Positions 24,538 to 42,883 are shown, counted from the first letter of the stretch. The stretch: DNA of 49,132 nucleotides from Chloroflexota bacterium (GCA_018263575.1 JAANWX010000057.1:1-49132), one strand, 5' to 3'. Numbers and translations are program-made. The notes: generated from the sequence alone by a model not told the origin.

Positions 24538-25893
24538 ATGAGCAATTATGTTCATCCCCACGGGCACGTTTTCTATCGCCGCATGAGCCACCTGCACCCC
24601 ATGATCCAGCGCGGTGAGGGAGTCTATCTCTACGACAGCGAGGGCAAACGCTACCTAGACGGCTCTGGGGGGCCGATGGTAGCAAATATCGGGCACGGCG
24701 TGGAGCGCGTGGCAAAGGCCATGGCAAAGCAAGCCTCGCAGGCGGCCTACATTCACGCGACGATGTTCACCAGTGAAGCTATTGAAAAATACTCCACCGC
24801 CCTAGCGGAAATTACCCCCATCCCGGAGGCGCGTTTTTATTTTCTATCCAGTGGCTCAGAAGTCATAGAGGCAGCCATTAAATTAGCCCGGCAAGTGCAA
24901 TATGAACGCGGAAAAACCAGCCGTTATTTACCCATATCGCGGTGGCAATCTTACCATGGCACTTCGATGGGAGCCTTGGCGGTGGCGGGCAAACCCAAAA
25001 TGCGCTCACTTTTCAAGCCTATGTTCAAGGATTACCCGCACATCCCACCCCCCTATTGTTACCGCTGTCCCTACGGTCTGGAGCATCCAGAGTGCGATTT
25101 GCGTTGCGCGACCGCGCTCGAAGGTGAAATCAAAATACAAGGTACTGAAACTATATCTGCTTTTGTGGCTGAACCCATCAGCGGCGCAACTTTGGGAGCC
25201 GCTGTTCCCCCTCACGGTTATTGGCCCCGCATCAGAGAAATTTGCGACAAGTACGAAATTTTGTTGATAGCGGATGAGGTGATGACGGGCATGGGGCGGA
25301 CTGGGAAGTGGTTCGCTATGGAGCATTGGGGCGTCGAAGCGGACATCCTCACCATGGGCAAGGGCACGGTGGGGGGATATTTTCCCTTGGGGATTGTGGC
25401 GACCCGGGGGGAGATCGTCGACCACATCGCGGCGGGGACGGGTGATTTCGTCCATGGGGGGACGTACTCGCACCACGCGGTGGGGGCCGCGGCGGGGCTG
25501 GGGACTCTCCACCATATCCAAGAAAACAAGCTAGTCCGAAACATGCCCCAAAGAGAACGCAGCCTGGAGCACGCGCTTCGCACCCATCTGGGCGACCTGG
25601 AATGTGTCGGCGATATTCGAGGCAAGGGCCTTATGTGGGGCGTAGAGCTGGTAGCGAGCCGAGATACCAAAAAACCTTTTGATGCCAATGCCCATTTTTC
25701 GCGGCAAGTGGCTGATGAAGCTTTTGAGCGCGGCTTGATCATCTATCCTGGCAGCGGCTGCGTGGACGGTGTGTCGGGCGATTTGCTGATGTTTGGGCCT
25801 CCCTTTGCTATTAATGATGAGCAAATAGAGGAGATGGTTTCGATTGTTAGGGAAGTGATTTTCCATGTTTGTGAAGCGCAGCGGATGTACTAG
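24538..25893 (+). CDS. Class-III aminotransferase (omega-transaminase-like)
   Basis: AAAGGAG lies upstream. Contains SGSEVIEAAIKLAR, DEVMTGMGRTG and TMGKG (PLP Lys). Confidence 0.85.
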   Translation: MSNYVHPHGHVFYRRMSHLHPMIQRGEGVYLYDSEGKRYLDGSGGPMVANIGHGVERVAKAMAKQASQAAYIHATMFTSEAIEKYSTALAEITPIPEARFYFLSSGSEVIEAAIKLARQVQYERGKTSRYLPISRWQSYHGTSMGALAVAGKPKMRSLFKPMFKDYPHIPPPYCYRCPYGLEHPECDLRCATALEGEIKIQGTETISAFVAEPISGATLGAAVPPHGYWPRIREICDKYEILLIADEVMTGMGRTGKWFAMEHWGVEADILTMGKGTVGGYFPLGIVATRGEIVDHIAAGTGDFVHGGTYSHHAVGAAAGLGTLHHIQENKLVRNMPQRERSLEHALRTHLGDLECVGDIRGKGLMWGVELVASRDTKKPFDANAHFSRQVADEAFERGLIIYPGSGCVDGVSGDLLMFGPPFAINDEQIEEMVSIVREVIFHVCEAQRMY

Positions 25894-26456: not shown

Positions 26457-27854
26457 ATGTTTCGCACAAAACGTTACATTTACGCTTTATTGATTCTGGT
26501 TGTAGCAGCCCTGATATTCGCGGCCTGCGCAACACCTGAGGTGATAGAGAAAGAAGTTATCGTCACCGTCGAAGTCGAGAAAGAAGTCGAGGTCGAGAAA
26601 GAGGTCGTAGTCACCGAGATCGTCGAGGTTGAGGCCGAAGCTCCCCCGGTTGGCCGCTGTGCCCCCATGGACGCTGCAGATGTTGAAGTTATCAAGATCG
26701 GTGTTCCGCTGCCCATGTCCGCCCCTGGCGCTGTTGGTGGTGGTCTGGCCATGCAATACGCCGTCAACATCGCTGTTGATCAACTTAATGCAGATGGCGG
26801 CGTGCTTGGCAAGCCAGTACAGCCCGTATTCTATGACACTGCCAGCCTGCCCGAGCGCGGTACCGCAGCCATGGAATACTTTATCACCCAGGAATGTGTT
26901 GTCGCTGTTGTTGGCGAATACCACAGTTCCGCCGGTGTGGCAGAGAAAGAAGTTGCCCACAAATACCATATCCCCACCGTCTTCGCAGAAACTTGGAACG
27001 ACACTATCACAGGTGCTGGCTACGCCGAAGTCTTCCGCATTGCACCTGCTTCATCGATGGTAGCTGCTGCCGATGTGAATTACATCTCGAACTTGGAAGG
27101 TATTGAATTCGTCGTCATCGTCACTGAAAACACCGACTATGGCTTGCCGGCTGCCGATCAAACCGCAGAAGCTTTGGCTACCATTGGCATCGAAACTGAA
27201 ATTTACTCTGCTGATAAGGGTGTTGCCGATTACTCCGCGATTATCACCCGTATCCAAGCTGGTCCGGTTCCTGACATTGTTATGACCCTGACCACCGGCG
27301 AAGACTCCTACAACTTTGAAAATCAGGCTATTGAAGCTGGTCTCATGCCTACCGCAGACACCATTTGTATTGCGAATCAGGTTGCCATTCAGCCTGCCTT
27401 CTGGGATGCTGTTCCCGGCGGTAATTACTGCTCCTTCCGCAAGGTGGGATTGGTACCGGCGCTGGCTAACGAAGTAACCCAAACCTTCGAGGCAGAATAT
27501 CGCAAACGCTTTGACATCTTCCCCGAGTCCTACGCTCTTGAAGCTTATGACGCGATGATGATTATGGCGAACGCAATAGAGAATGCTGGCTCCCTGGACC
27601 CCGATGCGATCATCACCGCTCTGGAAGCCACCGACATCACGCTGGCGCAAGGCCGCTACTACTTCCCTTATGGTTCTGACAATCCTGTACCTGATGATGA
27701 ACCAGATTGGATGTGGCACCAGTGGCCAGATCCCGCTGTGCTTTTCATTCAGTACTTCGAAGAAGGACAGAGCGCAACTGATGCCGCTGTCATTTTCCCC
27801 GAAGTTTACCAGACTCACGACACCTTCCTGATTCCATTTGGGGAGACCCCGTAG
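26457..27854 (+). CDS. ABC transporter substrate-binding lipoprotein (LIV/HAAT family)
   Basis: Lipobox ALIFAAC, a Val/Glu-repeat linker, and a periplasmic-binding-protein type 1 body. It is followed by LivHMGF-type genes. Confidence 0.85.
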   Translation: MFRTKRYIYALLILVVAALIFAACATPEVIEKEVIVTVEVEKEVEVEKEVVVTEIVEVEAEAPPVGRCAPMDAADVEVIKIGVPLPMSAPGAVGGGLAMQYAVNIAVDQLNADGGVLGKPVQPVFYDTASLPERGTAAMEYFITQECVVAVVGEYHSSAGVAEKEVAHKYHIPTVFAETWNDTITGAGYAEVFRIAPASSMVAAADVNYISNLEGIEFVVIVTENTDYGLPAADQTAEALATIGIETEIYSADKGVADYSAIITRIQAGPVPDIVMTLTTGEDSYNFENQAIEAGLMPTADTICIANQVAIQPAFWDAVPGGNYCSFRKVGLVPALANEVTQTFEAEYRKRFDIFPESYALEAYDAMMIMANAIENAGSLDPDAIITALEATDITLAQGRYYFPYGSDNPVPDDEPDWMWHQWPDPAVLFIQYFEEGQSATDAAVIFPEVYQTHDTFLIPFGETP

Positions 27855-28035: not shown

Positions 28036-28980
28036 ATGGACTATATTACCGGTCAATTCCTGGTAAATCTACTCATGAATGGGATTCTCATTGGCCTCAT
28101 TTATGGGTTGATGGCCTTGGGCTTGACGCTCATCTTTTCTGTTTTAGGTATTGTTAGTTTCGCGCATGGAGAATTCTACATGATCGGGGGATATGTAGTG
28201 TATTATTTACTCCAAGCTTTTGGCAATTTAGAACCCATGATTGCTATTCTCATTGCAGGAGCAGTTACATTTGTCATTGGGGTCATCTTTGAGTTGTTAT
28301 TCCTGCAACCAATGGGCAAAGGTGATATCGAACGACCTGGCGAATACGCTATTCTTTTGACCTTTGGATTGGCATTCTTTTTGCAACATGTAATGATTGG
28401 CATTGTTGGACCTTTCCCGACAAAAGTAGATCGTTTTTATGATTTCGCAGAAATAGATTGGGGTTGGTTGAGAATGAAAGCTGCTACGGTTTGGTTCTTC
28501 GACATGCCCATCAGTTCCAGTCGTCTCATTGCTACCGGAGTTGCAGTTGTTCTCACCGCGCTCATGATCTGGTTTATGAGCAAAACGTGGACAGGACGAG
28601 GTTTACAGGCCGTCAGCCAAGACAGGCAGGCTGCATCTGTTGTCGGTATCAACCCCTCGCACATGAACACTTTGGCATTTGGGTTAGGAACAATGCTCGC
28701 AGGCATGTCTGGAGCGGCATTGGTGACGGTTTTTGCCTGGGTACCCTGGGTGGGGATGCCAGCCTCTAGCAAATCCTTTATCATTATCGTATTGGGCGGT
28801 ATGGGTTCCATGCCCGGCGCTCTTCTGGGAGGATTGGTTTTGGGGATTGTTGAATCCTTTGGCGCTGGTTTATACCCCGATCCATCCAAGGCCCTAGCTT
28901 ATAAAGATGCTTTTGGCTTGCTGGTTTTCGCCTTAGTACTTTTGGTCAAACCTACTGGCTTCTTTGGGAGGAAACTATGA
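28036..28980 (+). CDS. livH: Branched-chain amino acid ABC permease (LivH type)
   Basis: 314-aa polytopic membrane protein whose stop overlaps the next start. Confidence 0.85.
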   Translation: MDYITGQFLVNLLMNGILIGLIYGLMALGLTLIFSVLGIVSFAHGEFYMIGGYVVYYLLQAFGNLEPMIAILIAGAVTFVIGVIFELLFLQPMGKGDIERPGEYAILLTFGLAFFLQHVMIGIVGPFPTKVDRFYDFAEIDWGWLRMKAATVWFFDMPISSSRLIATGVAVVLTALMIWFMSKTWTGRGLQAVSQDRQAASVVGINPSHMNTLAFGLGTMLAGMSGAALVTVFAWVPWVGMPASSKSFIIIVLGGMGSMPGALLGGLVLGIVESFGAGLYPDPSKALAYKDAFGLLVFALVLLVKPTGFFGRKL

Positions 28981-30068
28981 AACGCATACCAATTCAAGGG
29001 GTATTACTTGTTCTCCTGCTCATATTTGCGTTTGCATTTCCTAGAATAATGCAAGGTCAGCCATATTGGCTTTATGTTGCTCTACAATCCTTTTTCTGGG
29101 CAATGATGGCAGCTAGTTGGGCTTTGCTTGCTGGTTATGCAGGGCAATTTTCCTTTGCACATATTGCCTTTATGGGAATCGCTTCCTATACCAGTGGTAT
29201 TTTAGGACGGGACTTGGGGTGGTCGCCTATTTCAGGAATTATTCTTGGTACGCTTATGGCAGGTTTGGTCGGAGTTCTCGTTGGCTACTTATGCCTTCGT
29301 CTCCGACGTACCTACTTAGCCCTCTTTACTATCGCATTCTCTGAAATTGTGCGCCTCATTATCAACGCGGAACATGAATTTACAGGCGGCCCAATGGGGC
29401 TTTATATGGAGCCTCTGCTTGAGACAACCTCCTATGTGCCTACCTACTATATTATGTTGGTGGCACTAATCGTTTCACTTGCCATCATGTATGCAATCGC
29501 AAACTCTCGCTTAGGATTATTTTTACGCTCCATCCGAGAAGATGAAGAAGCCGCAGCCGCGATGGGCGTTCATGTTGTTCGCTATAAAATCTTGGCATTC
29601 GTCATTACCTCGATGATTGCAGGCATAGCAGGAGCGCTCGACCACCACATTATCGGGTTCATCGCTCCTAACGAATTGATGATTCCCCGCATGAGTTTGG
29701 TTATTGCTATGGCCGTCATCGGCGGCACAGAAAGCCTTATCAGCGCGTCGCTGGGCGCGATCTTTATTCACTTCGCAATGGAATGGCTCCAAAAAATCCC
29801 TGTTCCAGCAAGTTGGATGCCAAGCCTGAGAGAAAACACGGCAACCTTACAACAATTCGGGCTGTCTCTTGGCGAGGGCTATCTTCAAACGAATGCCTGG
29901 CGTATGGTTTTATTCGGCCTGATGTTGATGTTGACATTGCGTTTCTGGCGAAATGGGTTGATTCAACCCTTGCTGGAAAAAATTGGACGGCAAGGCGTCG
30001 CTGAAGAAACGGTTGCCAAACGAAAATTTTCCCAAGAAGAAAATGAAATAGAAGGCACGGAGGCTTAG
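28977..30068 (+). CDS. livM: Branched-chain amino acid ABC permease (LivM type)
   Basis: 363-aa polytopic membrane protein with a 4-nt overlap with livH. Confidence 0.85.
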   Translation: MKRIPIQGVLLVLLLIFAFAFPRIMQGQPYWLYVALQSFFWAMMAASWALLAGYAGQFSFAHIAFMGIASYTSGILGRDLGWSPISGIILGTLMAGLVGVLVGYLCLRLRRTYLALFTIAFSEIVRLIINAEHEFTGGPMGLYMEPLLETTSYVPTYYIMLVALIVSLAIMYAIANSRLGLFLRSIREDEEAAAAMGVHVVRYKILAFVITSMIAGIAGALDHHIIGFIAPNELMIPRMSLVIAMAVIGGTESLISASLGAIFIHFAMEWLQKIPVPASWMPSLRENTATLQQFGLSLGEGYLQTNAWRMVLFGLMLMLTLRFWRNGLIQPLLEKIGRQGVAEETVAKRKFSQEENEIEGTEA

Positions 30069-30070: not shown

Positions 30071-30802
30071 ATGAAGTTAGAAATTAAAAACATTACAAAG
30101 AACTTTGGTGGTATGCAAGCCCTCAACAACGTGGAACTCACCATCGATAAATCGGAAATCATCGGGCTTATCGGCCCCAACGGAGCCGGAAAAACCACGC
30201 TCACTAATGTAATCGACGGTGTTTACAAACCGTCGGAAGGAGAAGTGTGGCTCAATGATGAACGAATTGACCACCTTCCGCCCTACAAAATTGCCCGCCG
30301 CGGGCTGGGACGTACCTTTCAGGTGACACGTGCCTTCCGGCGTATGACGGTGATGGAAAATATGATGGTTCCTGCAATGGCGATAAACCCGGGCGCAAAA
30401 CGCCAAAACGTGATCAACAAAGCCCAAGGGATTTTAGAATTCTTGACCTTTGAGCATCTGGCCAACGAATACGGACGCGGTCTCTCTGGCGGGCAGCAAA
30501 AATTGCTCGAATTAGCTCGCTTGCTGATGCTTGACCCAGATTTTGTCATCCTGGATGAGCCTTTCGCTGGGGTACACCCCACGCTTCAGGAAACTATCTA
30601 CGGCTATATTGACAAAGTCCGGCAAGAAGGCAAGGCCATCATCTTGATCAGCCATGATATGGATTCTATCTTTACCCTAAGTGAACGACTGGTGGTACTT
30701 GACTTTGGTGCGATTATTGCCGATGGTAATCCCCAGAATGTAAAACAAGACCCTGTTGTCATCAAAGCTTACCTGGGTGAAGATGAAGAGGAGGATTATT
30801 AG
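30071..30802 (+). CDS. livG: ABC ATP-binding protein (LivG type)
   Basis: Walker A GPNGAGKTT, signature LSGGQQK, and Walker B ILDEP. Confidence 0.9.
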   Translation: MKLEIKNITKNFGGMQALNNVELTIDKSEIIGLIGPNGAGKTTLTNVIDGVYKPSEGEVWLNDERIDHLPPYKIARRGLGRTFQVTRAFRRMTVMENMMVPAMAINPGAKRQNVINKAQGILEFLTFEHLANEYGRGLSGGQQKLLELARLLMLDPDFVILDEPFAGVHPTLQETIYGYIDKVRQEGKAIILISHDMDSIFTLSERLVVLDFGAIIADGNPQNVKQDPVVIKAYLGEDEEEDY

Positions 30803-30804: not shown

Positions 30805-31506
30805 ATGCTTGAAATTAAAGACCTATATGTTGGGTATTACAGTGACTTGAATATCATTCAAGGTGTAGACCTCATTGCTCGAGAACAACAGATCACTGCT
30901 ATTTTGGGCGCCAATGGTGTGGGTAAATCCACATTACTTAAGTCAATTTACGGGTTTCTAAAACCTAATAGTGGCGAAATCTGGATGGGAGATCGGCGGG
31001 TGGATGGTACCCCCACCCATGAATTGATCAATCTCGGCATCTCCTATATTCCACAACACACTGGCCTTTTCAAATGGATGTCGGTGGAAGAGAACATCGA
31101 ACTAGGCGGCTGGACTTTCCGCAAGGATAAAGATCGTCTCAAGCAAAAGCTGGAAGAAAGCTATGAACGTTTTCCCGTCCTGAAAGAAAAACGCAAGCAA
31201 GCCGCTGGCGAACTCTCAGGTGGACAGCAACGCATGGTCGAGATCAGCCGTACATTGATGACAGATCCAAAAGTAATCCTGGTGGACGAACCGACCGCTG
31301 GATTGGCTAAACTATTGTCTCAGGATGTATATGACATGTTGACCGATCTACGTGATAACGATGGTCTGACCATTGTTTTGGTAGATCAGGAAATTCGCTC
31401 GGCTTTGAAGGTGTCGGATTACGTTTATGTGCTTGATCTGGGCCATAATCATTTTGATGGGCCAGTGGATGAGAACATTGACCTGGAGGAAGTGTTCTGG
31501 GCATAA
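30805..31506 (+). CDS. livF: ABC ATP-binding protein (LivF type)
   Basis: GANGVGKST, LSGGQQRM and LVDEP. Confidence 0.9.
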   Translation: MLEIKDLYVGYYSDLNIIQGVDLIAREQQITAILGANGVGKSTLLKSIYGFLKPNSGEIWMGDRRVDGTPTHELINLGISYIPQHTGLFKWMSVEENIELGGWTFRKDKDRLKQKLEESYERFPVLKEKRKQAAGELSGGQQRMVEISRTLMTDPKVILVDEPTAGLAKLLSQDVYDMLTDLRDNDGLTIVLVDQEIRSALKVSDYVYVLDLGHNHFDGPVDENIDLEEVFWA

Positions 31507-31600: not shown

Positions 31601-32248
31601 ATGTTAGTAAAAGAGCGTATGAGTTTGCACCCACTGACGATGAAATCTGAAGCATCTATAACAGAGGTGCATCGGTATATGAAGGAGAATAATATTCGTC
31701 ACTTGCCCGTTATGAACAAGAAAGAGAAACTAGTGGGGTTGGTCAGCCGTGAGACGTTGATGGAGGCAATGCCCTCGTCAGCGACCACACTCAACATCTG
31801 GGAAATCAACTACGCGTTGAGCAAAGTCAAGGTTGGCGATGTGATGGTGCGGGATGTAATCACCGTGGAAGAAAACGTTACCATAGAAGAAGCTGCCCGT
31901 GTGATGATCGAGAAACAAATTGGTTCCTTACCCGTGATGCGTGGGGAAGTGTTGGTCGGTATCATCACCGAGACTGACATGCTCTCCACGTTAATGGAAC
32001 TCGTAGGTACCCGCAGGGCCGGGGTACGGATCACACTCCAGGGGCCGACCGAGACAGGAGTGCTGGCCGGGATCACGGGGGCAATTGCGGAGAAAGGCGG
32101 GAGCATCGCCGCATGCGGCACCTATGAGGCCGAAGAACCGCTGAGGTTCAATGTCGTTCTTAAGGTCAGACATATACTCCAAGACGACTTGGTCGCCACA
32201 CTGGAAGCCCTTAATGAAATAGAGGTACTGAACGTTAGAACAAGTTAG
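31601..32248 (+). CDS. CBS-pair plus ACT domain protein (AcuB-like)
   Basis: Two CBS repeats (IRHLPVM..., IGSLPVM...) followed by an ACT-like C-terminus. AAGGAG lies upstream. Confidence 0.75.
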   Translation: MLVKERMSLHPLTMKSEASITEVHRYMKENNIRHLPVMNKKEKLVGLVSRETLMEAMPSSATTLNIWEINYALSKVKVGDVMVRDVITVEENVTIEEAARVMIEKQIGSLPVMRGEVLVGIITETDMLSTLMELVGTRRAGVRITLQGPTETGVLAGITGAIAEKGGSIAACGTYEAEEPLRFNVVLKVRHILQDDLVATLEALNEIEVLNVRTS

Positions 32249-32467
32249 CAGGGCGAGGTGCGGAGCGATTTTTAAGCATTTCAGGTAGCATCAAAGATGA
32301 GGGGCAAGACTTCACCCAACGGGTGTGCAAGGCACGAAGTCTAACGGCTTTTGAAGACTTCGGAAGTCTTTGCCCCAAAATATTGAGAAGATACTATTTC
32401 TGCTTTGCGCTTCAAACTTCCGTCAAGAGTGCCTCGTACTTAGGATCTGTCCACTAATAACTTTCTT

Positions 32468-32525
32468 CCAGGAACACGGTTCCTCAGCCCTTTTAGGGTG
32501 TTTTGCAAAGGAACCGTGTTCCTGG
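32468..32525. repeat. Perfect 16-bp inverted repeat hairpin
   Basis: ccaggaacacggttcc, a 26-nt loop, then ggaaccgtgttcctgg. Confidence 0.7.
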
Positions 32526-32721
32526 TTTGGACGCAAATCACGAAGTTAATAATGGACAATTCAGGATGGTTCACAATTAACTTTACACTTTGGGTAGTGA
32601 GCCAACCGTGTTGGCGGCTCAATCAGACCTGCCCAACTCGGTTGGGCGCCTACCCGTGAGAAAAAGTGTCAAGCTATTTGTTTAGCAAAATGAACCATCC
32701 CGACAATTACAGTTTATTTAT

Positions 32722-34095
32722 ATGGCTCAATCGGCAGAAGTTGTCATTTGTGGAGCGGGCAGTGCAGGTGTTGCCGCAGCCTACTATTTGGCTAAACAAC
32801 AGACCATTACCAATGTTCTAGTGTTGGATAAGCACCCACCACTAACGCAGACCAGCGCCAAATCAGGCGAAAACTATCGTAACTGGTGGCCTACCGAGGT
32901 CATGGTGCGTTTTATGAATCGCAGCATTGATCTCATGGAAGCGCTTAGCGAAGCCTCCAACGATATCTTCAACATGGAACGCCGTGGCTATGCCTACGTC
33001 ACAGAGTCCATTGCAGATATACATAACTACGTCCATCATTACAGTCAATTGAGTGTTGGTGACATACGATTTCACAGGGGCACACACCAAAACGGCACAG
33101 CGACTTATTCCCCTCCAGCCTATCGGGGTTTCGAAGGACAACCTGATGGTGCAGATTTGCTACTTGATAAACAGATTATCCAGACAACTTTCCCCCACTT
33201 TTCAGACGATATACAGGCTGTCATCCATGCCCGGCGTTGCGGCGCAATCAGCGCCCAGCAATTGGGCATGTACTTGTTGGAAGAGGCAAAGAAGCTCGGC
33301 GTCAGGGAACTGCGCGGCGAGCTTATTGCTATCGAGCAGGATCACTGCGGCGTTAGGGCTGTCGAGGTCAAGACGGCAAACGGAAAAGAACGCATAGAAA
33401 CGCGCCGAGTTATCAATGCGGCTGGCCCATTCGCACCTCATGTTGCCGCTATCTTAGATGTTGAACTGCCCATTTTCTCTGTCTTGCAACAGAAAATAGC
33501 CATACAGGATCACCTCGGAGTCGTGCCGCGCGATACTCCATTCACTATCTTTATGGATGAACAACATCTCGATTGGTCCGCAGATGAAGAGCAACTCCTG
33601 CAGTCGGAACCAGAATACCAGTGGATGCTGGATAAATTCCCTGGTGGATTGCACATCAAACCGGAGGGCGGTAAAGATAGTCTTTGGATCAAACTAGGGT
33701 GGGCCTTCAACCGCACCATCGAACAACCATTATGGGAACCCGAAGGGACACTAGAATTCCCCGACATTGTTCTGCGCGGCGCATCCAGACTAATTCCTGA
33801 GTTAAAGCGATATATTGATAATATCCCCAAGCCGGTTGTGCATTACGCCGGCTATTATACGAAAACAAAAGAGAACCTACCCGTTGTTGGCCCTCTTGAT
33901 GTCGAAGGCGCTTATATTGTTGGCGCTTTGTCAGGTTTTGGCACTATGGTCAGTTGTGTGGCCGGTGAGCTAATAGCAGCCTGGGTAGCGGGAAGTGAGT
34001 TACCTGACTATGCCCACCAGCTTTCGTTGGCACGCTACGATGATCCTGCTTACCTTGCTTCTCTCAGCGGGATGCGATTAGACGGTGAACTTTAG
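32722..34095 (+). CDS. FAD-dependent oxidoreductase (DAO / amino-acid or amine oxidase-dehydrogenase family)
   Basis: N-terminal dinucleotide fold VVICGAGSAGVAAAYYLAK; 457 aa. Confidence 0.75.
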   Translation: MAQSAEVVICGAGSAGVAAAYYLAKQQTITNVLVLDKHPPLTQTSAKSGENYRNWWPTEVMVRFMNRSIDLMEALSEASNDIFNMERRGYAYVTESIADIHNYVHHYSQLSVGDIRFHRGTHQNGTATYSPPAYRGFEGQPDGADLLLDKQIIQTTFPHFSDDIQAVIHARRCGAISAQQLGMYLLEEAKKLGVRELRGELIAIEQDHCGVRAVEVKTANGKERIETRRVINAAGPFAPHVAAILDVELPIFSVLQQKIAIQDHLGVVPRDTPFTIFMDEQHLDWSADEEQLLQSEPEYQWMLDKFPGGLHIKPEGGKDSLWIKLGWAFNRTIEQPLWEPEGTLEFPDIVLRGASRLIPELKRYIDNIPKPVVHYAGYYTKTKENLPVVGPLDVEGAYIVGALSGFGTMVSCVAGELIAAWVAGSELPDYAHQLSLARYDDPAYLASLSGMRLDGEL

Positions 34096-34444
34096 TTGTA
34101 ATTATCTACGAAGCTTCGCCTCAAGCCAACGAGATTCAACGCAGAGCCGCAGAGGGGCAGAGTCGCAGGGGGCGCGTAAAAAGCACGCGGGCGTAAAAAA
34201 CACGCCTAACAAAAATAAAAACCCTGCGTCTTTGCATCTCCCCAGGGTACTTGCTCAAAATGTTAGTGGTGCAACGCATCTGTTTTTGATGCGCCATCCG
34301 CTTTCACGGTGTGCGCCCTTGGCGTGGGTGCGTTGCACCACGAGTTTGTCTGTGAAAGCCGAACTGCAATTATTATGCCCTCCGGGTACGCACTTTGCCA
34401 ACCAAGTGCAATACGGTGTTGCCGAGGCACAGCCTCGGGGCTGC

Positions 34445-34510
34445 ACACCGTGAGCACTAGCCTGTGGGCTCGCTCTACGATGTTACGGTGTACAGCCCAC
34501 GGGCTAGTGC
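34445..34510. repeat. Interleaved inverted repeats (17-bp stem plus 7-bp stem) built from a dispersed motif
   Basis: acaccgt (34445-51)/acggtgt (34485-91) and gcactagcctgtgggct (34454-70)/agcccacgggctagtgc (34494-510). cagcccacgggctag recurs at 37772-37786. Confidence 0.6.
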
Positions 34511-34751
34511 AGTTCTACCACCATGATTTTGAGCAACTACTCCCCAGGCGTGTCTTGTACGCCCACTCTGCGTTAAAATTTATGATTTGCAGTGGAAATC
34601 TTGTCTCATCTGTAAAGAATTTTGGGTATAAGGAGTTCACTCCCCTGCCAAGACCTCCGAGGTTTTTGGGGTGCAAAACCTCGGAGGTCTGCCCCGTTAG
34701 GATGGGGAAGGTGAACGGTTGCCTTTAGTATTTAGAAAGGAGTTTCTAACT

Positions 34752-35765
34752 ATGTCAGAAAACATTCGAGTAATACAATACGGGCTTGGTCCCATTGGAA
34801 ACGCCACAGCACGCTACATCGTGGAACGTGCAGGGCTAGAGTTAGTCGGTGGGGTAGATATTGACCCGGCCAAGGTCGGCAAGGATGTCGGCAAGGTCAT
34901 TGGCCTGGAACGGGACCTGGACTTTGCCGTGACCGAGAATCTGGCGCAAATTAAGGTCACCGCCGATGTAGTGCTGCACGCCACCAGTTCTTACTTTGAC
35001 CAGTTCGAGGATCAAATTATAGAGATATTGGAAGCAGGCCTGGATGTCGTCTCCACAGCGGAGGAACTTTCTTTCCCCTGGCTGGCTCATCCCCAACAGG
35101 CCGCCGAGATCGATGCTGTAGCCAAGCGCGTTGGAAAAACCGTCCTAGGTACCGGCGTCAATCCCGGTTTTATTATGGACTCATTTCCCCTCAACCTGAC
35201 GGCCATCTGCCAGCAGGTCGAAGGCATTGACGTGACACGGCGCATCAACGCTTCCACCCGGCGCGGACCATTCCAGGCTAAAATTGGTTCCGGCATGACA
35301 GTGGATGATTTCAATGCCAGGATTGCCGCTGGCCGCATGGGCCACGTGGGACTGCCCGAGTCTATGGGCATGGTCTTGGACACCCTAGGCAAGAGGCTAA
35401 TTCGTTACGATTCTGACATTGAGCCAGTTGTGGCTGACCATTTGATCACGACTGACTATTTTGAGGTGCAGCCTGGTCAGGTGCAGGGACTCAGACAGGT
35501 GGGCCGAGCCTACGTCAACGGGGGGAATGATCAGGAAACCGACCCCAGGGAGTTTTTGACACTCACCTTTATTGCCGCCCTTGAATTGGAAAATGAAGGT
35601 GATATAATACAAATCTTTGGCAGCCCCAACCTTGAGGCCAATCTCAAAGGTACCAACGGCGACATTGCCACAGTAGCCATCGCCGTCAACAGTATTCGCC
35701 GTGTGAAAGAGGCTGCGCCAGGTCTGGTTACGATGCGAGATCTGCCCATCGTGACTTTCTGGTAA
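34752..35765 (+). CDS. NAD(P)-dependent amine dehydrogenase of the 2,4-diaminopentanoate dehydrogenase / DapB-like family
   Basis: Rossmann N-terminus IRVIQYGLGPIGNATARY. I place the start at ATG 34752 (AAAGGAG upstream) rather than at 34719. Confidence 0.65.
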   Translation: MSENIRVIQYGLGPIGNATARYIVERAGLELVGGVDIDPAKVGKDVGKVIGLERDLDFAVTENLAQIKVTADVVLHATSSYFDQFEDQIIEILEAGLDVVSTAEELSFPWLAHPQQAAEIDAVAKRVGKTVLGTGVNPGFIMDSFPLNLTAICQQVEGIDVTRRINASTRRGPFQAKIGSGMTVDDFNARIAAGRMGHVGLPESMGMVLDTLGKRLIRYDSDIEPVVADHLITTDYFEVQPGQVQGLRQVGRAYVNGGNDQETDPREFLTLTFIAALELENEGDIIQIFGSPNLEANLKGTNGDIATVAIAVNSIRRVKEAAPGLVTMRDLPIVTFW

Positions 35766-35793
35766 AAATTCTTAGAAAACAAAGGAGACATTT

Positions 35794-37659
35794 GTGAACG
35801 ACATTAAAACCCGCTCTGAAGGAACGGCACAGGACAATCTATGGGAACACGACAATCAGGTTCACCGCATCTTGCAGGCTAGCGGGGACGTTGAAGAGGG
35901 ACGAACCGCTTTGGTCACCTACCTCAACGACCTTGAGTGGGAATACCGCAGCGATGGCAAAGCGGATGGACAACATCCGGCGGATAAACAACATCCGTTG
36001 GAGTACGCCACGGCTATAGAAGCCCTGCGTGTCTTCCGCAACCTGCTCTCGCCGCGTAATGAAGAAATCGCTGAGTTCAGCACTATTGAACACCTCTGGC
36101 AATTGGCTAATGGAAAAGCCGACAACCTTTCCCTGGGATTCATTGAGGAATTCGAGCATCTCTTCAAGGCAATTAACGGGCAAGCCAACTTTTCTGAGGG
36201 TTGGCTGGGGTCAGCCTTGGCTGATGCTGGAGTGGAGGCAGTGGATTTCGCTACTATTGGGGGACGAGAGGCCGGCATTGCCCGCTCAGGTTTCCTTGAT
36301 CACGTAAGCGACAGGATGATGGAGTTGTTGAAACGCCACACTACCGGCCTGGACCCCGATCTGATCGCCAAACGGGAGCAGAACCGGCAAAAGATCATGG
36401 ATCACTTCGATACCACGTTGGATTATTGGAACGACTACCGCTGGCAGTTGAAACGTATCATCAAAGATGAGGATGGATTAGAACATCTCCAGCAGCTTGT
36501 ACCTTTGAACGACGAAGAGTTAGAAGCGGTCCGCTTGAGTGTAGAGTACGACATTCCCTTTGGTATTACCCCTTACTATCTATCTCTCTTCGATTTCGAT
36601 TCGCCTGATCGCAAAGAGGACGCCCAAGTCAGATCACAAGTTATTCCACCTGCGCACTATGTCGAGGAACTGATGGCACACCAGGAGGACCGGAAGCGTT
36701 ATTTTGATTTTATGGGGGAGTACGACACTTCACCCATTGATCTGGTCACCCGGCGTTATCCCACCGTAGCAATTATTAAACCTTTTGATACCTGTCCCCA
36801 GATTTGCGTCTATTGCCAAAGAAACTGGGAGATAACCGGTCCCATGATGCCCAAGGCAATGGCTCCGCAAGATAAACTGGATGCGGCTTTGGATTGGTTC
36901 GCCGCTCACACAGCCCTTCGCGACGTCCTCATTACCGGTGGCGATCCCTTGTTCATGAGTGACACCAAGATCAAGTACATGATGGAACGCTTTAGCAGCA
37001 TGGATCACATAGTCAACATCCGCTGGGCAACGCGAGGCCTTGTGACAATGCCCATGCGCGTCACAGAAGAGTTAGCCGAGATGTTGGGTGAGTACATAGA
37101 GCCTGGTCGCAGGAACGTGTGTTTCGTCACCCACATTGAGAGCGCGGCGGAAATCACGCCAGACATGGCCGATGCTGTCTACCGGTTGCGCCGGCAAGGT
37201 ATCTATGTTTATAATCAGCAAGTCTTTACGCTGAACACCAGCCTCCGTTTCCAGACCGTGGTTAACCGCATCGCAATGAAAAAAATTGGCATAGACCCCT
37301 ATTACACCTTCTATCCCAAAGGAAAAGAGGAAACAAAGGACTATCTAACTCCACTGGCACGGGTTCTTCAGGAACGCAAGGAGGAAGCGCGGTTGTTGCC
37401 GGGCATATTCCGCACCGACGAGCCAGTCTTCAACGTTCCCCGCCTGGGGAAGAACCACATCCGCTCTTGGCAGGATCGGGAACTGATCGCTATCCGTCCC
37501 GATGGGCGCCGCGTATACCTCTGGCATCCGTGGGAAAAAGGCATCACTTCGATGAAACCCTGGCCCTACGTAGATAACTCTATCAGCGAATATCTGCAGC
37601 GACTAGAGGAAATCGGAGAGGATCCGCAAGATTACGAAAGCATCTGGTACTACTATTAG
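35794..37659 (+). CDS. KamA-family radical-SAM, PLP-dependent aminomutase, long form with a ~205-aa N-terminal extension
   Basis: GTG start with AAGGAGA 5 nt upstream. Contains DYWNDYRWQL, ITPYYLSL, CPQICVYC (CxxxCxxC) and ITGGDPL. VPRLGKN sits at the position of the LAM PLP-lysine loop. Confidence 0.8.
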   Translation: MNDIKTRSEGTAQDNLWEHDNQVHRILQASGDVEEGRTALVTYLNDLEWEYRSDGKADGQHPADKQHPLEYATAIEALRVFRNLLSPRNEEIAEFSTIEHLWQLANGKADNLSLGFIEEFEHLFKAINGQANFSEGWLGSALADAGVEAVDFATIGGREAGIARSGFLDHVSDRMMELLKRHTTGLDPDLIAKREQNRQKIMDHFDTTLDYWNDYRWQLKRIIKDEDGLEHLQQLVPLNDEELEAVRLSVEYDIPFGITPYYLSLFDFDSPDRKEDAQVRSQVIPPAHYVEELMAHQEDRKRYFDFMGEYDTSPIDLVTRRYPTVAIIKPFDTCPQICVYCQRNWEITGPMMPKAMAPQDKLDAALDWFAAHTALRDVLITGGDPLFMSDTKIKYMMERFSSMDHIVNIRWATRGLVTMPMRVTEELAEMLGEYIEPGRRNVCFVTHIESAAEITPDMADAVYRLRRQGIYVYNQQVFTLNTSLRFQTVVNRIAMKKIGIDPYYTFYPKGKEETKDYLTPLARVLQERKEEARLLPGIFRTDEPVFNVPRLGKNHIRSWQDRELIAIRPDGRRVYLWHPWEKGITSMKPWPYVDNSISEYLQRLEEIGEDPQDYESIWYYY

Positions 37660-37965
37660 GCCGTTGAGCAAGCTAGTACCCAACGGCAGAAGTTCTTACC
37701 ATGGGTAGATAGCCAATCGTATTGGCGGAGATGATTTAGTGGGAGCGTAAGCGGCTGGGGGATGTGGTGCGCAGCCCACGGGCTAGAGTGAAGCCTCGCC
37801 CCGGTGCGGATTTCGCCCCCCACATGGCAACCTCTCCCCCCCTGTGTGTCACCCTCCCCCTGCGTGGCAACCTCCCCCCCCCAAAACCGCCCAATTTGAT
37901 TGGGCTACTACCCTTAAGTTGATGCATATATCCCAAATCCACGGAATCACTCATCAAGGTAATTT

Positions 37966-39030
37966 ATGACCACAACCATAGGCCCCATTAAATATCTTGA
38001 GGTAACAGGATCTCACTTCGAGGTTGGATTTGCAATTGGAGAACGGTTTTCTGAGCAAATTCATCAACTCTTGGACAACTATCGCTTGTTCCAAAACCAG
38101 ATTTTGCCTTACAATCGTACTCCAGAAGGACGGACACGATATGAAAAGCTCCTTGACTTGAACCAGGCTCAGTATCCAGGCTATATGGATGAGATAGGAG
38201 GGTTAGCCCAGGGAGCCGGACGAGCCTTCGAAGACCTGTTTTTGGTCAACTTGCGCGGAGAATATGAGAAGTATCTGGTTTCATCTGATTTGAATGGGTG
38301 CTCCGATTTTTCTCTGGTCACGGACGATGTAGCCTTGATTGGGCATAATGAAGATAGTGCCCCAGAATTTCGAGGTAACATGTATCTTGTTCACGCCGAT
38401 ATCGAGGATGGAATCCCTTTTACCGCGCTCGCGTATCCCGGATTTCTATGTGGCAACGCTTTTGGATTCAATGCTGCGGGAGTGTGTTACTCCATTGACA
38501 ATGTCCGGCCTAGAACTGCTGAAGTGGGTCTAGGCCGGCACTTCGTCGCCCGTTCCCTCCTGGACGCGGAATCTCTGGATGATGCCATTGACCGCGTGAC
38601 ATCGCCGGGCCAGGCTCTGGGCTTTAGTTACACCATCGGTTCCGTGCGCGAACGGCGCGTGATGCACGTAGAGGTTGCGTCAGAGACCAACTTTGTGCAT
38701 GAGATCCAGGGCCGCTACTACCATGCCAATCATTATTTGGAGCTTAGTGGTGTGGATCAGATTATTGGGGCTTCCAGCCAGGCACGTGTGGAGCGAGCTA
38801 ACGCTCTATTGCAAGACTTCACCCCTTTGGACGACGCGGCAGTCCTAGAAATCCTTGGTGACCAGATGAATGCGCAGTATCCCATCTACCGTACAGCTAC
38901 TCCCCCAGACGATCTTGCAACATTGTATACCACACTATTTGACCTGGATGCTCGCAGGCTAAGGATATATACCGGCCATCCTGTCCTAGCCCCACAAGAA
39001 TTCGTTGAGTTTGCCATCCCAGCCCCGTAA
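37966..39030 (+). CDS. Peptidase C45 / acyl-CoA:6-aminopenicillanic-acid acyltransferase-family Ntn hydrolase
   Basis: 354 aa. The Gly111-Cys112 (LNGCSDFSL) autoprocessing or nucleophile site is at the family-typical position. Confidence 0.65.
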   Translation: MTTTIGPIKYLEVTGSHFEVGFAIGERFSEQIHQLLDNYRLFQNQILPYNRTPEGRTRYEKLLDLNQAQYPGYMDEIGGLAQGAGRAFEDLFLVNLRGEYEKYLVSSDLNGCSDFSLVTDDVALIGHNEDSAPEFRGNMYLVHADIEDGIPFTALAYPGFLCGNAFGFNAAGVCYSIDNVRPRTAEVGLGRHFVARSLLDAESLDDAIDRVTSPGQALGFSYTIGSVRERRVMHVEVASETNFVHEIQGRYYHANHYLELSGVDQIIGASSQARVERANALLQDFTPLDDAAVLEILGDQMNAQYPIYRTATPPDDLATLYTTLFDLDARRLRIYTGHPVLAPQEFVEFAIPAP

Positions 39031-39185: not shown

Positions 39186-41027
39186 ATGACTGAAGAAAAA
39201 CCTAAACCTGGGCCTGTCGTGAATGATTTTTCCATCACCATCGGGACAGTGAATGGCTCAGGAAGCCAAACCGCGAACACGACCCTGATGCGGGCCTTCT
39301 TCAAGATGGGCATCCCCGTATCAGGCAAGAATATTTTCCCCTCCAATATCCAGGGTTTGCCGACGTGGTACACCATACGGTTGAGCAAAGACGGGTATGT
39401 GGCCCGCTCAGAAACCACAGAGATTGTGGTCGCCATGAACAAAGACTCATTTCAAGAAGACCTGGAGAAATTGATTCCGGGTGGCGTTTTTCTTTACGCG
39501 GATGATATTCGCCAAGAAGTATTCAGAGAAGATGTCCTTGCCTTTCCCATGCCGGTGAAAAAGATCATCCGGGAGTCAGATACCCCTCGAAAACTCCGGG
39601 ATTATTTGAACAATATGGTCTATGTGGGCATTTTGGCGCACTTGCTGGGGATCGAGGTTGAAAAACTTCAACAGGCTTTAGACTTCCATTTTAATGGAAA
39701 ACAGACCCCCATTGACTTGAACATGGAGGTCATTAACCGGTCGATGAAATGGGCCGCTGAAAACTTGGAGCATGAATCCCCGTATCGCGTGGAAGCCATG
39801 GATGGGACGGATGACTATATTATGTCCAGTGGTAACACGGCCGGCGCGTTGGGTTCCATATACGGCGGTTTGCAATTTGCGGCCTGGTATCCCATCACCC
39901 CGGCTACCGGTCTCCCCGAAGCGATCATGAAATATCGCCCTGAAGTACAAACTGACCCGGAAACTGGAAAATATAAATCCGTTGTCGTGCAAGCGGAGGA
40001 TGAGTTGGCCGCCGCCGGGATGACCATTGGGGCTGGGTGGGCCGGCCTGCGTTCCATGACGGCTACTTCGGGGCCAGGGTTGAGTCTGATGGGGGAATAC
40101 ACCAGCCTGGCGTATTATGCCGAAGTCCCCGTCGTCCTATGGAACGTTCAGCGGATGGGACCCAGCACCGGATTGCCCACCCGCACCTCCCAGGGCGACA
40201 TTAACCTGGCTCATTACCTGGGACAGGGCGATACCCAACATCCCATCCTTTTCCCTGGTTCCGTGAACGAGTGTTTCGAGTTTGGCTGGAAAGCCTTAGA
40301 TTTGGCCGAAGAACTTCAAACGCCTATCATGGTACTCATTGATTTGGATTTGGGCATGAACCAGTGGATGACGTCTCCTTTCGAATATCCTGACACGCCC
40401 ATCAAACGTGGCAAAATTCTCTGGGAAGAGGACTTAGAAAACTTGGATTGGGAGTGGGGGCGGTATCTCGATAAAGATGGGGACGGCATCCCCTACCGTA
40501 CTGTGCCCGGCAACACCCATCCCAAGAGCGCGTATTTCACGCGGGGAACCGGTCACGATGATTATGCCAACTACAGCGAAGACCCAGAAACCTGGGACGA
40601 GAACATAAAACGCCTCAATCGAAAATTTGAGCTGGCACGCACCCTGGTTCCGAAGCCGAAAATCCACCGCAGAGACGGTGCAGAAATTGGCGTCATCGCT
40701 TTTGGTTCCACCGACCCAGCCGTTAGCGAAGCTGGTGATATTTTAGAAGCAGCAGGCGTCAGAGTGGACTATTTGCGGTTGCGGGCTTTGCCGATCACGA
40801 CCGAGGTGGTGGAATTCATTCAGGAACACGACCGGGTCTATGTCGTTGAGATGAATCACCATGGCCAATTACATCAGATCATTAGCCAGGATATCCCTGA
40901 GCAAGCTCTGAAAATGGTCTCATTGACCTATAACACCGGCTTGCAGTTAACGGCAGATTGGGTTAAAAACGCTATCTTGACTGAGGAACCGGGTTTCTCC
41001 GAGAAACCTGGTTCCTTCTCAGATTAG
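39186..41027 (+). CDS. korA: 2-oxoacid:ferredoxin oxidoreductase alpha subunit with a fused N-terminal gamma domain
   Basis: 613 aa. Gamma-like GTVNGSGSQTAN is followed by the alpha core. The last ~14 codons overlap a hairpin repeat. Confidence 0.85.
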   Translation: MTEEKPKPGPVVNDFSITIGTVNGSGSQTANTTLMRAFFKMGIPVSGKNIFPSNIQGLPTWYTIRLSKDGYVARSETTEIVVAMNKDSFQEDLEKLIPGGVFLYADDIRQEVFREDVLAFPMPVKKIIRESDTPRKLRDYLNNMVYVGILAHLLGIEVEKLQQALDFHFNGKQTPIDLNMEVINRSMKWAAENLEHESPYRVEAMDGTDDYIMSSGNTAGALGSIYGGLQFAAWYPITPATGLPEAIMKYRPEVQTDPETGKYKSVVVQAEDELAAAGMTIGAGWAGLRSMTATSGPGLSLMGEYTSLAYYAEVPVVLWNVQRMGPSTGLPTRTSQGDINLAHYLGQGDTQHPILFPGSVNECFEFGWKALDLAEELQTPIMVLIDLDLGMNQWMTSPFEYPDTPIKRGKILWEEDLENLDWEWGRYLDKDGDGIPYRTVPGNTHPKSAYFTRGTGHDDYANYSEDPETWDENIKRLNRKFELARTLVPKPKIHRRDGAEIGVIAFGSTDPAVSEAGDILEAAGVRVDYLRLRALPITTEVVEFIQEHDRVYVVEMNHHGQLHQIISQDIPEQALKMVSLTYNTGLQLTADWVKNAILTEEPGFSEKPGSFSD

Positions 41028-41052
41028 TGAGAAGTTGCGAGGAGAAGAAATA

Positions 41053-42081
41053 ATGGCTAGAAAGAAAAGAGTGAACGAGTTGGGTTTGTCGAAAAGTGAC
41101 TACGCTGGCGCGTCGACCACGCTGTGCGCCGGGTGTGGGCATAATGCCATCATTGGTCAGATGATAGCGGCCTGTTTTGAAGAAAATATCCCGCCTGAGA
41201 AACTTGTCAAATTTAGCGGGATTGGGTGTTCGAGCAAGGCCCCAACTTATATGTTGAAGCGATCTTTTGGGTTCAATGGCCTGCATGGACGAATGCCCTC
41301 CTTGGCCACAGGGGCCTTGTTGGCCGATATGTCTCTCATTGGGATAGGCATGAGCGGAGACGGGGATACGGCCAGTATTGGCATGGGGCAGTTCAAGCAC
41401 ATTATGCGTCGCAATGTACCTTTGGTTTATGTAGTTGCCAACAACGGCGTCTATGGCCTCACCAAGGGGCAGTTGTCTGCCACGGCTGAAGAGGGTTTGG
41501 CGCTCAAACGTCAGGGGCAAAATAAATATATGCCCATAGACATCGTCTGGGAAGCCCTGGTTGGCCGGGCCTCGTTTGTGGCCCGGGGATTCTCTGGTGA
41601 TCCCAAACAACTTAAGACCTTGTTCAAAGCGGCCTTGCACCATCGTGGTACAGCCGTCATTGATGTCATTAGCCCTTGTGTGACTTTCAACAATATGGAT
41701 GATTCACATCACTCCTACGCCTGGGGCAAGATCCATGAGGTTGCCTTGCACGAACTCTCTTTTGTTCCGCCAGGAAAATCTATCAAAGTGAAATATGAAA
41801 AGGGTGAGACTGCGGAAGTTACATTACACGACGGGTCGCAAATCATACTCAAGAAATTAGGGCGCGATTACGACCCCAATAACCGTGGAGCCGCCCTTCA
41901 GCTTCTCGAAGAGGCTAATAAAAAGAACGAGTTGGTCACCGGATTAATCTACATCAATCCCAAACAAATATCCATCTTCGACATCGAATACCTCCCACCC
42001 TCCCCCCTCAACCGTGTCCCCGACGAGGAACTGCGCCCCAGCCGGGATTCGCTGGATAAGGTGAATGCGATGATGTTTTAG
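41053..42081 (+). CDS. korB: 2-oxoacid:ferredoxin oxidoreductase beta subunit (TPP-binding)
   Basis: CAGCGH and GMSGDGD motifs. I place the start at ATG 41053 (GAGGAG upstream). Confidence 0.85.
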   Translation: MARKKRVNELGLSKSDYAGASTTLCAGCGHNAIIGQMIAACFEENIPPEKLVKFSGIGCSSKAPTYMLKRSFGFNGLHGRMPSLATGALLADMSLIGIGMSGDGDTASIGMGQFKHIMRRNVPLVYVVANNGVYGLTKGQLSATAEEGLALKRQGQNKYMPIDIVWEALVGRASFVARGFSGDPKQLKTLFKAALHHRGTAVIDVISPCVTFNNMDDSHHSYAWGKIHEVALHELSFVPPGKSIKVKYEKGETAEVTLHDGSQIILKKLGRDYDPNNRGAALQLLEEANKKNELVTGLIYINPKQISIFDIEYLPPSPLNRVPDEELRPSRDSLDKVNAMMF

Positions 42082-42093: not shown

Positions 42094-42127
42094 AGACTTC
42101 AAAAGTCTTCGAAGACTTTTGAAGTCT
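42094..42127 (+). terminator. Perfect 34-bp palindrome followed by a T-run (terminator candidate; member of the GAAGTCTT palindrome family)
   Basis: agacttcaaaagtcttcgaagacttttgaagtct followed by ctgtttt. Confidence 0.55.
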
Positions 42128-42520: not shown

Positions 42521-42883
42521 ATGATAGCCGGTTTAGCAGGCACTATATTTGCCCACTATATCACAATCATCACCCCCAATATGTTGGTTTTACCACAAAT
42601 GGGCATCGTCATAGCCATGGGCATTATTGGTGGTGTAGAAAACTTAATAGCGGCCGCCATAGGTGGGGTCATTATCCAAGTCAGCTTAGAAATTCTCCGA
42701 GAATTTGGCGCTTGGCGCTTGGTCATTTTTGGGGGAGTATTAATAATTACCTTGCGCTTTGCACGCAATGGATTAATTGCTCCCTTGCTCCAACGAATTA
42801 GTGGAACAAGTCCCAAAGCTGAATTAAGACAAGAAGCCCCTCATTCAACAAAAGAAGGGGAAGGAGATTCTCATGAAGCTTGA
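42521..42883 (+). pseudogene. 5'-truncated LivM-type permease fragment (last ~95 aa only)
   Basis: MIAGLAGTIFAHYITIITPN...ITLRFARNGLIAPLLQRI parallels the C-terminus of LivM at 28977..30068 (MIAGIAGALDHHIIGFIAPN...LTLRFWRNGLIQPLLEKI). The similarity stops abruptly at about 42520. Confidence 0.7.

Follow-up and report, generated by a model that had tools for sequence, protein, structure and literature searches.

A long-form KamA-family aminomutase in a possible mosaic amino-acid utilisation locus of a marine Anaerolineales genome

In the gene clusters for clostridial lysine and ornithine fermentation (KamA-KamDE-Kdd-Kce-Kal and Orr-OraSE-Ord-OrtAB), aminomutase and amine dehydrogenase genes are adjacent, with those for CoA-dependent cleavage enzymes nearby. 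We analysed a locus with a comparable adjacency in a 49,132-nucleotide stretch of DNA (GCA_018263575.1, JAANWX010000057.1:1-49132; "the window" below means this whole stretch), a contig of a marine Anaerolineales metagenome-assembled genome (MAG) whose parent assembly comprises 2.7 Mb and is 90.7% complete. Here a gene for an Ord-like dehydrogenase directly precedes one for a long-form KamA-family aminomutase (long KamA) that uses radical S-adenosylmethionine (SAM) and pyridoxal phosphate (PLP), and genes for a DAO-family flavoenzyme, a C45-family hydrolase and a 2-oxoacid:ferredoxin oxidoreductase (OFOR) lie around the pair. A first-pass annotation had proposed that these five form a catabolic module. 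Unlike the clostridial clusters, the window combines what appears to be a glutamate-type aminomutase with a dehydrogenase that is not Ord, and their adjacency is not conserved. We rejected a dedicated five-gene module in favour of a mosaic, as only the importer, the CBS-ACT gene and long KamA are conserved. Our preferred reading, to which we give a probability of only about 0.4, is a mosaic amino-acid utilisation locus: a core of importer, CBS-ACT protein and long KamA (acting on an acidic substrate, and likely a glutamate aminomutase), inserted DAO and Ord-like genes, and optional C45 and OFOR genes. The genes and spacers concerned are these:

26457-27854, + strand: substrate-binding protein (SBP) of a LIV-type ABC importer (Pfam)
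28036-28980, + strand: LivH of the same importer (Pfam)
28977-30068, + strand: LivM (Pfam)
30071-30802, + strand: LivG (Pfam)
30805-31506, + strand: LivF (Pfam)
31601-32248, + strand: CBS-CBS-ACT protein, called CBS-ACT here (two Pfam CBS matches)
32249-32721: spacer with palindromes and dispersed repeats (inverted repeat I5); one border of the inserted segment
32722-34095, + strand: DAO-family FAD oxidoreductase (PF01266, 125 bits)
34096-34751: non-coding spacer of 656 nt between the DAO and Ord-like genes, rich in REP-like repeats
34752-35765, + strand: Ord-like dehydrogenase of the native amine dehydrogenase (nat-AmDH) family (DapB_N and DAP_DH_C; NF040740 269, cut-off 400)
35794-37659, + strand: long-form KamA-family radical-SAM/PLP aminomutase, 621 residues (TIGR00238 324, cut-off 199)
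37660-37965: spacer with the second REP-like copy (37772-37786) and a C-rich 40-nt direct repeat
37966-39030, + strand: C45-family autoproteolytic Ntn hydrolase/acyltransferase (NF040521 204.8 bits, cut-off 85)
39186-41027 and 41035-42081, + strand: KorA and KorB of a probable two-subunit OFOR (alpha subunit TIGR03710 537, cut-off 482.75)

Open reading frame (ORF) listing and family scans recovered all five co-oriented genes of the first-pass annotation on the + strand and reproduced the 28-nt spacing that it had given for the dehydrogenase and KamA.

The long-form aminomutase and its conserved neighbours

Judged by its motifs, the window protein is a genuine KamA-family aminomutase. It consists of a helical N-terminal domain of about 205 residues, an aminomutase core and a C-terminal domain that ends in WYYY. 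The cysteines of the CxxxCxxC cluster motif (C334/C338/C341) are invariant in 24 of 24 sequences, as is R343, and the likewise invariant K553 aligns with the PLP lysine (the GGGGK lysine of LAM-type sequences). Foldseek returned just one close solved fold (E 6e-15, 29% identity over the core), that of 2A5H, the lysine 2,3-aminomutase (LAM) of Clostridium subterminale, with which the protein has the cluster, SAM and PLP motifs in common. In LAM, Asp293 and Asp330 hold the lysine epsilon-ammonium group; in the long form these positions are occupied by K509 and N547, both invariant in the family, and no KamDE, Kdd, Kce or Kal partners were seen with it. The alignment with LAM and glutamate 2,3-aminomutase (Eam) that the first-pass annotation had called for thus finds Lys and Asn at the two Asp positions, as in Eam; a true Eam from an Alkaliphilus MAG (L141, 694 bits on TIGR04368) has the same two residues in these columns. 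Eam of the Clostridioides difficile type also shares the core, the CxxxCxxC motif, the Arg after the third Cys and the PLP lysine. The long form differs from it in an identity of only about 25%, in its N-terminal domain and core insertions, in a shorter glycine loop before the PLP lysine and in its distinct C-terminal domain. An EpmB-type enzyme, which the same annotation had named as a possible refutation, is excluded (TIGR03821 93 bits, cut-off 369), and the score on the lysine 2,3-aminomutase model TIGR03820 also falls short (151 bits, cut-off 525). Because the Lys/Asn signature is shared with Eam, and because glutamate 2,3-aminomutase is the best-scoring NCBIfam equivalog, long KamA is most likely a 2,3-aminomutase for an acidic amino acid that would convert L-glutamate to beta-glutamate.

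To our knowledge, glutamate 2,3-aminomutase is known from one clostridial and one methanogen enzyme. The latter, a KamA-family enzyme of Methanococcus maripaludis with some 160 extra N-terminal residues, has reportedly been shown to make beta-glutamate, and its function is said to have been predicted from its substrate-binding residues. Compared with that enzyme, the N-terminal extension of long KamA is longer (about 205 residues), and its gene has importers and catabolic genes for neighbours, not an osmolyte setting; the long-form family may nevertheless be one already characterised in methanogens.

We found the family at 80 genome loci and in many metagenome proteins, with 51-79% identity across all 621 residues, the N-terminal domain included; it ranges over Anaerolineae, Atribacterota, Thermotogae, Pyrodictiaceae, Desulfurococcales, Ignicoccus and Thermoplasmata. 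Five homologues are longer still (P0366, P0374, P0383, P0385 and P0392; 822-1357 residues), with several hundred extra residues before the extended N-terminus, and P0374 and P0392 also extend past the match at the C-terminal end. The window copy carries an 18-nt tandem duplication in its N-terminal domain (GCGGATGGACAACATCCG / GCGGATAAACAACATCCG, 35962-35997), which encodes a short insertion, ADGQHPADKQHP, that is not present in its relatives (alignment A1).

We compared neighbourhoods by tblastn with all window proteins and by clustering of all neighbouring ORFs, over 87 long-KamA loci including the window (80 from species-representative genomes and 7 from metagenome contigs; 1.1 Mb of context, with 63 loci of at least 8 kb). 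The eight closest relatives, with KamA proteins 74-78% identical (L014, L017, L018, L028, L143, L144, L145 and L146), all have the order LIV ABC importer, CBS-ACT, KamA, mostly with an IclR gene ahead; the window has no homologue of that IclR regulator. In Anaerolineae, no neighbour of long KamA is as constant as the LIV importer, and orthologues of its SBP also occur in Thermotogae and archaeal loci. In Atribacterota, the order is RpiR, KamA, TAXI-TRAP transporter, GntR, four-subunit OFOR and acetate kinase, and the TAXI binding protein beside KamA matches 1US4/1US5 (1.5e-48), a Thermus protein reportedly solved with glutamate bound. Archaeal long-KamA genes adjoin LIV-type or TRAP transporters or stand alone. 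Only a transporter and a regulator accompany long KamA in nearly all cases.

In some loci, other genes recur beside this core. Upstream of the importer, the window carries the following:

17543-20886, + strand: aldehyde:ferredoxin oxidoreductase (AOR) and a second class-III aminotransferase, upstream of the CoA-transferase
20940-21860 and 22470-23240, + strand: CoA-transferase subunits A and B (Pfam CoA_trans)
23256-24443, + strand: thiolase (Thiolase_N/C; TIGR01930 473 bits)
24538-25893, + strand: class-III aminotransferase AT3b (Aminotran_3)

Orthologues of AT3b, both CoA-transferase subunits and the thiolase abut the KamA operon in three further loci (L025, L039 and L044). The first-pass idea of a downstream role for the CoA-transferase and thiolase at 20.9-24.4 kb thereby gains support, and these two enzymes together with AT3b are better candidates for the steps after the aminomutase than the Ord-like dehydrogenase. 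In our genome sample, neither AT3b nor the CoA-transferase was associated with long KamA at the genome level. The same module is also found on its own (for example in G048:C191, G055:C144, G096:C1 and G169:C1), its CoA-transferase A and B being unusual in that they have no NCBIfam match, and in that form it may serve as an independent route for beta- or omega-amino acids. Non-orthologous OFORs follow long KamA in L017, L144, L145, about 13 Atribacterota loci and the window. The amine-oxidising neighbours vary from locus to locus: DAO in L014, an Ord-like remnant plus saccharopine-dehydrogenase-like genes in L028, and saccharopine-dehydrogenase-like genes in L146. Such variety, the class-III aminotransferase included, fits a catabolic use with interchangeable deaminating steps. 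Several Pyrodictiaceae loci (L071, L077, L080 and L084) have a homocitrate/isopropylmalate-synthase-like gene after long KamA, which was not seen in L059 and L070; aconitase-family large-subunit genes occur in L059, L070, L071, L077 and L084, and small-subunit genes in L059, L071, L077 and L084.

The Ord-like dehydrogenase, DAO and the inserted segment

The direct pairing of KamA with an amine dehydrogenase, on which the first-pass interpretation turned, is not conserved, and the neighbourhood comparison that it had proposed came out against it. None of the 86 other long-KamA loci has an intact Ord-like gene, and none of 23 loci with Ord-like orthologues (62-79% identity) has KamA, DAO, C45 or KorA. 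In a sample of 300 Anaerolineae genomes, 8 carry long KamA and 36 the Ord-like gene; 2 have both, on different contigs, with about 1 expected by chance. In the window's own genus, no other of 24 genomes has long KamA. The closest approach to the pair is in L028, the closest relative (KamA 78% identical), where a truncated and frameshifted Ord-like remnant (L028:11865-12364) lies 14 nt past the KamA stop codon; it covers residues 114-212 and 291-344 only, at 49% identity. Saccharopine-dehydrogenase-like and AlaDH/PNT-like genes converge on this pseudogene. The adjacency in the window is therefore a lineage-specific one-off, and we regard it as a testable lead rather than as pathway evidence.

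Two of the clostridial fermentation partners that the first-pass annotation had listed as absent were looked for in the genome. Kce (BKACE, PF05853) has no match in the 90.7%-complete genome with a control that rang, which bears out that absence; the B12 aminomutase alpha subunit (PF09043) also has no match, but with a model that was silent in the control too.

What kind of enzyme the Ord-like protein may be can be judged from its active-site pocket, which we mapped through an alignment with AmDH4 and the positions P1-P21 tabulated in Supplementary Data 5 of PMC11164908. The closest solved structures are 7XDU and AmDH4 (6G1H/6G1M), and the 21 positions read S A E G V N F I R N A R Q I H V G D R G T. 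With Ord, AmDH4 and the G1 group, the protein shares the two-domain fold (DapB_N and DAP_DH_C), the catalytic Glu at P3, a G-V-N-P-G-F motif and His at P15. It differs from the highly conserved pocket of the G2 group, to which Ord belongs, at P12, P13, P14, P18 and P19 (Arg, Ile, Asp and Arg instead of Phe, Gln, His and Gln at P12, P14, P18 and P19), and it is without an OraSE or OrtAB context. Arg at P12 is a mark of the G1 nat-AmDH group (PMC11164908). Of the other G1 marks, Glu at P3 and Arg at P9 are present, whereas P2 is Ala, where the G1 consensus has Cys, and P10 is Asn; both residues depart from that consensus and match G2. In the orthologues, P9 is Val and the Arg stands one residue earlier; the window copy, with Arg at P9 itself, is further set apart by 8 residues inserted in the P18-P19 loop. 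The NF040740 score (269, cut-off 400) and the non-G2 pocket led us to reject a true 2,4-diaminopentanoate dehydrogenase. By these pocket residues, the protein is a nat-AmDH with a G1-like Arg at P12, outside true Ord. Nor is it a true dihydrodipicolinate reductase, the alternative that the first-pass annotation had wanted checked: the DapB model TIGR00036 (cut-off 122) matches nothing in the genome and rings in 11 of 14 control genomes. The models for dapA (TIGR00674) and dapB (TIGR00036), which ring in most control genomes, both gave no match in the 90.7%-complete genome, and the host organism may be without the diaminopimelate route to lysine.

Elsewhere, the Ord-like gene has a regular partner of another kind. 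In 14 of the 23 Anaerolineae loci the gene immediately ahead of it encodes a HemL-like protein, a class-III PLP enzyme of the glutamate-1-semialdehyde aminomutase family that scores below cut-off; an Amidohydro_3 gene often accompanies the two. The HemL-like partner was not found in the window's genome. Loci with the pair are:

L121:6378-8999 and L126:6205-8996: HemL-like/Ord-like pair
L098, L100, L122, L125, L127, L129-L132, L134 and L136: HemL-like/Ord-like pair

The DAO gene is an accessory one, also rare beside long KamA. Among long-KamA loci, an orthologue (77% identity) is found only in L014, where it sits behind KamA; homologues 62-69% identical lie in unrelated contexts, and the best match in the 300 genomes of the class is 49% identical. 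We therefore rejected DAO as a general partner of long KamA.

The window's CBS-ACT and KamA genes are separated by 3545 nt, compared with about 32-270 nt in the eight closest relatives, and the gap is filled by DAO, the 656-nt spacer and the Ord-like gene. A REP-like motif, CAGCCCACGGGCTAG, stands at 34493, with a diverged inverted copy at 34457 (span 34457-34507) and a direct copy at 37772-37786; it has 21 copies in the genome, compared with 0 for a reversed control, and the direct copies at 34493 and 37772 flank the Ord-KamA pair. In our reading, an older operon received DAO and the Ord-like gene in this lineage only, within a segment that has REP-like repeats at its borders.

Logan contigs from three sequencing runs, in each of which Ord-KamA-C45 is covered by a single contig, end or branch at the dispersed repeats 32356-32391 and 34433-34510, that is, at both borders of DAO. 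Because they break there, the placement of the 2.1-kb DAO segment between CBS-ACT and the Ord-like gene rests on the path that the MAG assembler took through the repeats. Read depth doubles at 32356-32391 and rises 4- to 10-fold in the 34096-34751 spacer; the depths of the three pieces agree. Two joints in the Logan contigs, 32625/37888 and 37913/32592, were considered as an alternative gene order and rejected: their sides are short and other letters lie between, so they are attributed to copies of the dispersed repeats elsewhere. The runs that contain window DNA are labelled marine metagenome.

Further features of the locus

The C45 protein carries the Gly-Cys processing site noted in the first-pass annotation: Gly111-Cys112 aligns with that of the Penicillium isopenicillin-N acyltransferase (2X1D). 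This self-processing site is what it has in common with the acyltransferase and peptidase C45; the match to the acyltransferase itself is weak (59 bits). C45 genes lie adjacent to or near long KamA in L019, L020, L024 and L039. C45 was rejected as an obligate partner, since six genomes have it without long KamA and in other contexts. C45 and the OFOR are recurrent but optional neighbours. In the latter, KorB scores 186.9 on the beta-subunit model TIGR02177 (cut-off 261.9) and has TPP_enzyme_C.

For the Ord-like gene, we prefer the ATG at 34752, which has AAAGGAG upstream and gives 337 residues, as in database gene calls; the longest ORF runs from 34719. KamA starts with a GTG that is preceded by AAGGAGA and lies 28 nt past the Ord-like stop codon. 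In the DAO-Ord spacer no ORF is credible, and neither Pfam nor Rfam gave a match there; an Rfam scan of the whole window found no riboswitch or other RNA family in any spacer. When four spacers were searched by tblastn, blastn and tblastx, no HemL-like or other coding remnant was found in the DAO-Ord spacer, and the only remnant was a LivM-type permease stump near 42.5 kb. This stump (42521-42883), which retains only the final ~80 profile positions of BPD_transp_2, lies ahead of a second, intact LivG/LivF pair and is a rearrangement scar downstream of KorB. Beyond KorB also lie a proline-racemase-family gene and an Amidohydro_3 gene, so that the ABC ATPases, racemase-family gene and amidohydrolase that had been placed downstream are all found. 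The promoter and terminator scan gave counts close to the shuffled expectation, with one convincing site:

42094-42127: terminator-like palindrome of 15 pairs, after KorB

The RNA run X5 gave short matching pieces, mostly on repeats, and one 236-nt piece in KamA (36370-36605, 0 mismatches), which is too little for claiming transcription.

Possible fates of the aminomutase product

In the mosaic reading, the LIV importer, CBS-ACT and long KamA would form the conserved operon core, and KamA would convert L-glutamate to beta-glutamate. The beta-amino acid would then be deaminated to a beta-keto acid, likeliest by AT3b (24538-25893), with DAO or the Ord-like enzyme as lineage-specific alternatives. 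The keto acid, or the acetoacetate formed by loss of CO2 from 3-oxoglutarate, would be activated by the CoA-transferase, and the thiolase would cleave the product to acetyl-CoA. We infer these later steps of deamination, CoA activation and thiolysis. As a general scheme, the sequence from aminomutase through beta-keto acid to thiolysis is plausible, and to that extent the first-pass interpretation stands; its use of the Ord-like enzyme as the dedicated partner of KamA falls with the pair's lack of conservation. The literature searched describes no catabolic route for beta-glutamate.

Several observations weigh against this scheme. The score on the glutamate 2,3-aminomutase model TIGR04368 is far below the cut-off (209 and 650, respectively), and the glutamate substrate is a prediction from two residues and the transporters. 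In the AlphaFold2 model (pLDDT 78.8), residues 505-560, which include K509, N547 and K553, are below 50, so the model is unusable for the substrate pocket. One Alkaliphilus MAG (G339) has both a true Eam (L141) and a long KamA (L142) beside a TAXI-TRAP transporter, which argues for non-identical roles. At least 12 Anaerolineae genomes have the AT3b/CoA-transferase/thiolase module as a separate unit but no long KamA, and AT3b is present in only one of eight sampled long-KamA genomes, so its link to KamA is local rather than general. The pattern of varied amine-oxidising neighbours extends to only about a third of the Anaerolineae loci. Finally, L023, L037, L051 and many archaeal long-KamA loci have no catabolic neighbour at all, which a biosynthetic or osmolyte role would fit equally well.

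That role, in which long KamA would make beta-glutamate as a compatible solute from imported glutamate and the adjacent catabolic genes would share no pathway with it, is in our view somewhat unlikely but a serious rival. It agrees with the restriction of near-universal partners to a transporter and a regulator, and with the origin of all long-KamA holders in marine, subsurface or hydrothermal lineages, the marine label of the window's runs included. In marine methanogens and a few bacteria, beta-glutamate serves as a metabolically static osmolyte (PMC1224877). Moreover, the second nearest ESM Atlas cluster to the window's enzyme is a 557-residue form whose commonest phylum is Methanobacteriota (score 0.98). 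However, IclR, RpiR and GntR regulators together with substrate importers typify catabolic operons, KamA has OFOR and acetate kinase as recurrent neighbours in Atribacterota and AT3b, CoA-transferase and thiolase in four Anaerolineae loci, and no beta-glutamate-modifying or salt-responsive gene was seen near it. The catabolic alternatives differ in the deaminating enzyme or in the substrate. A lineage-restricted form of the first-pass proposal, with the Ord-like enzyme recruited as KamA's partner to deaminate a beta-amino dicarboxylate to 3-oxoglutarate or 3-oxoadipate, seems to us improbable. The two genes lie 28 nt apart on one strand, KamA has its own ribosome-binding site, and each of three runs has Ord-KamA-C45 on one Logan contig; Arg at P12, P9 and P19 would suit the acidic substrate of a Lys/Asn-type KamA, the usual HemL-like partner was not found in the genome, and L028 keeps its remnant directly behind KamA. 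That remnant is a decayed pseudogene, only 49% identical, so the pairing is dispensable in L028; no intact pair was seen in 86 KamA and 23 Ord-like loci, and the genes are independent at the genome level. The pocket geometry, moreover, would suit amines at C4 rather than C3, and the REP-like repeats around Ord-KamA point to recent rearrangement. G1-type enzymes were inactive on every dicarboxylate tested (PMC11164908).

The substrate might instead be 2-aminoadipate, although we consider this very unlikely. In this anaerobic lysine route, a class-III aminotransferase and AOR would produce 2-aminoadipate and KamA 3-aminoadipate, AT3b would form 3-oxoadipate, and the CoA-transferase and thiolase would yield succinyl-CoA and acetyl-CoA. 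The Lys/Asn signature is compatible with any acidic side chain; AOR and the second class-III aminotransferase are at hand at 17543-20886; in L028 and L146, KamA is the point on which saccharopine-dehydrogenase and AlaDH/PNT-type genes converge; and in several Pyrodictiaceae loci it is followed by homocitrate/isopropylmalate-synthase-like genes and by members of the homoaconitase family. These are matters of context, each found in few loci. The thiolase scores 375 bits on the pcaF model, below the cut-off, and both it and the CoA-transferase fail the curated PcaF/PcaIJ cut-offs. The likeness of the TAXI protein to 1US4/1US5 points to C5 ligands, provided that this structure does contain bound glutamate. 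An undescribed fermentation of glutamate (or 2-aminoadipate) in which the recruited G1-like nat-AmDH and a glutamate-type KamA would lead through 3-oxoglutarate and acetoacetate to the CoA-transferase and thiolase is a long shot. If true, this route, with NAD(P)-dependent oxidative deamination of beta-glutamate, would provide the first physiological substrate for the orphan G1-type nat-AmDHs.

For annotation, the lesson is that a single adjacency in a repeat-rich, rearranged region is poor ground for reading a pathway. For the G1-like dehydrogenases, the leads on their substrate are the conserved pairing with the HemL-like enzyme and the one-off placement beside a predicted acidic-amino-acid aminomutase. 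The long-KamA family itself is widespread in uncultured marine subsurface bacteria (Anaerolineae and Atribacterota) and in hyperthermophilic archaea, where it may mark a common, unrecognised glutamate fermentation or a common osmolyte pathway.

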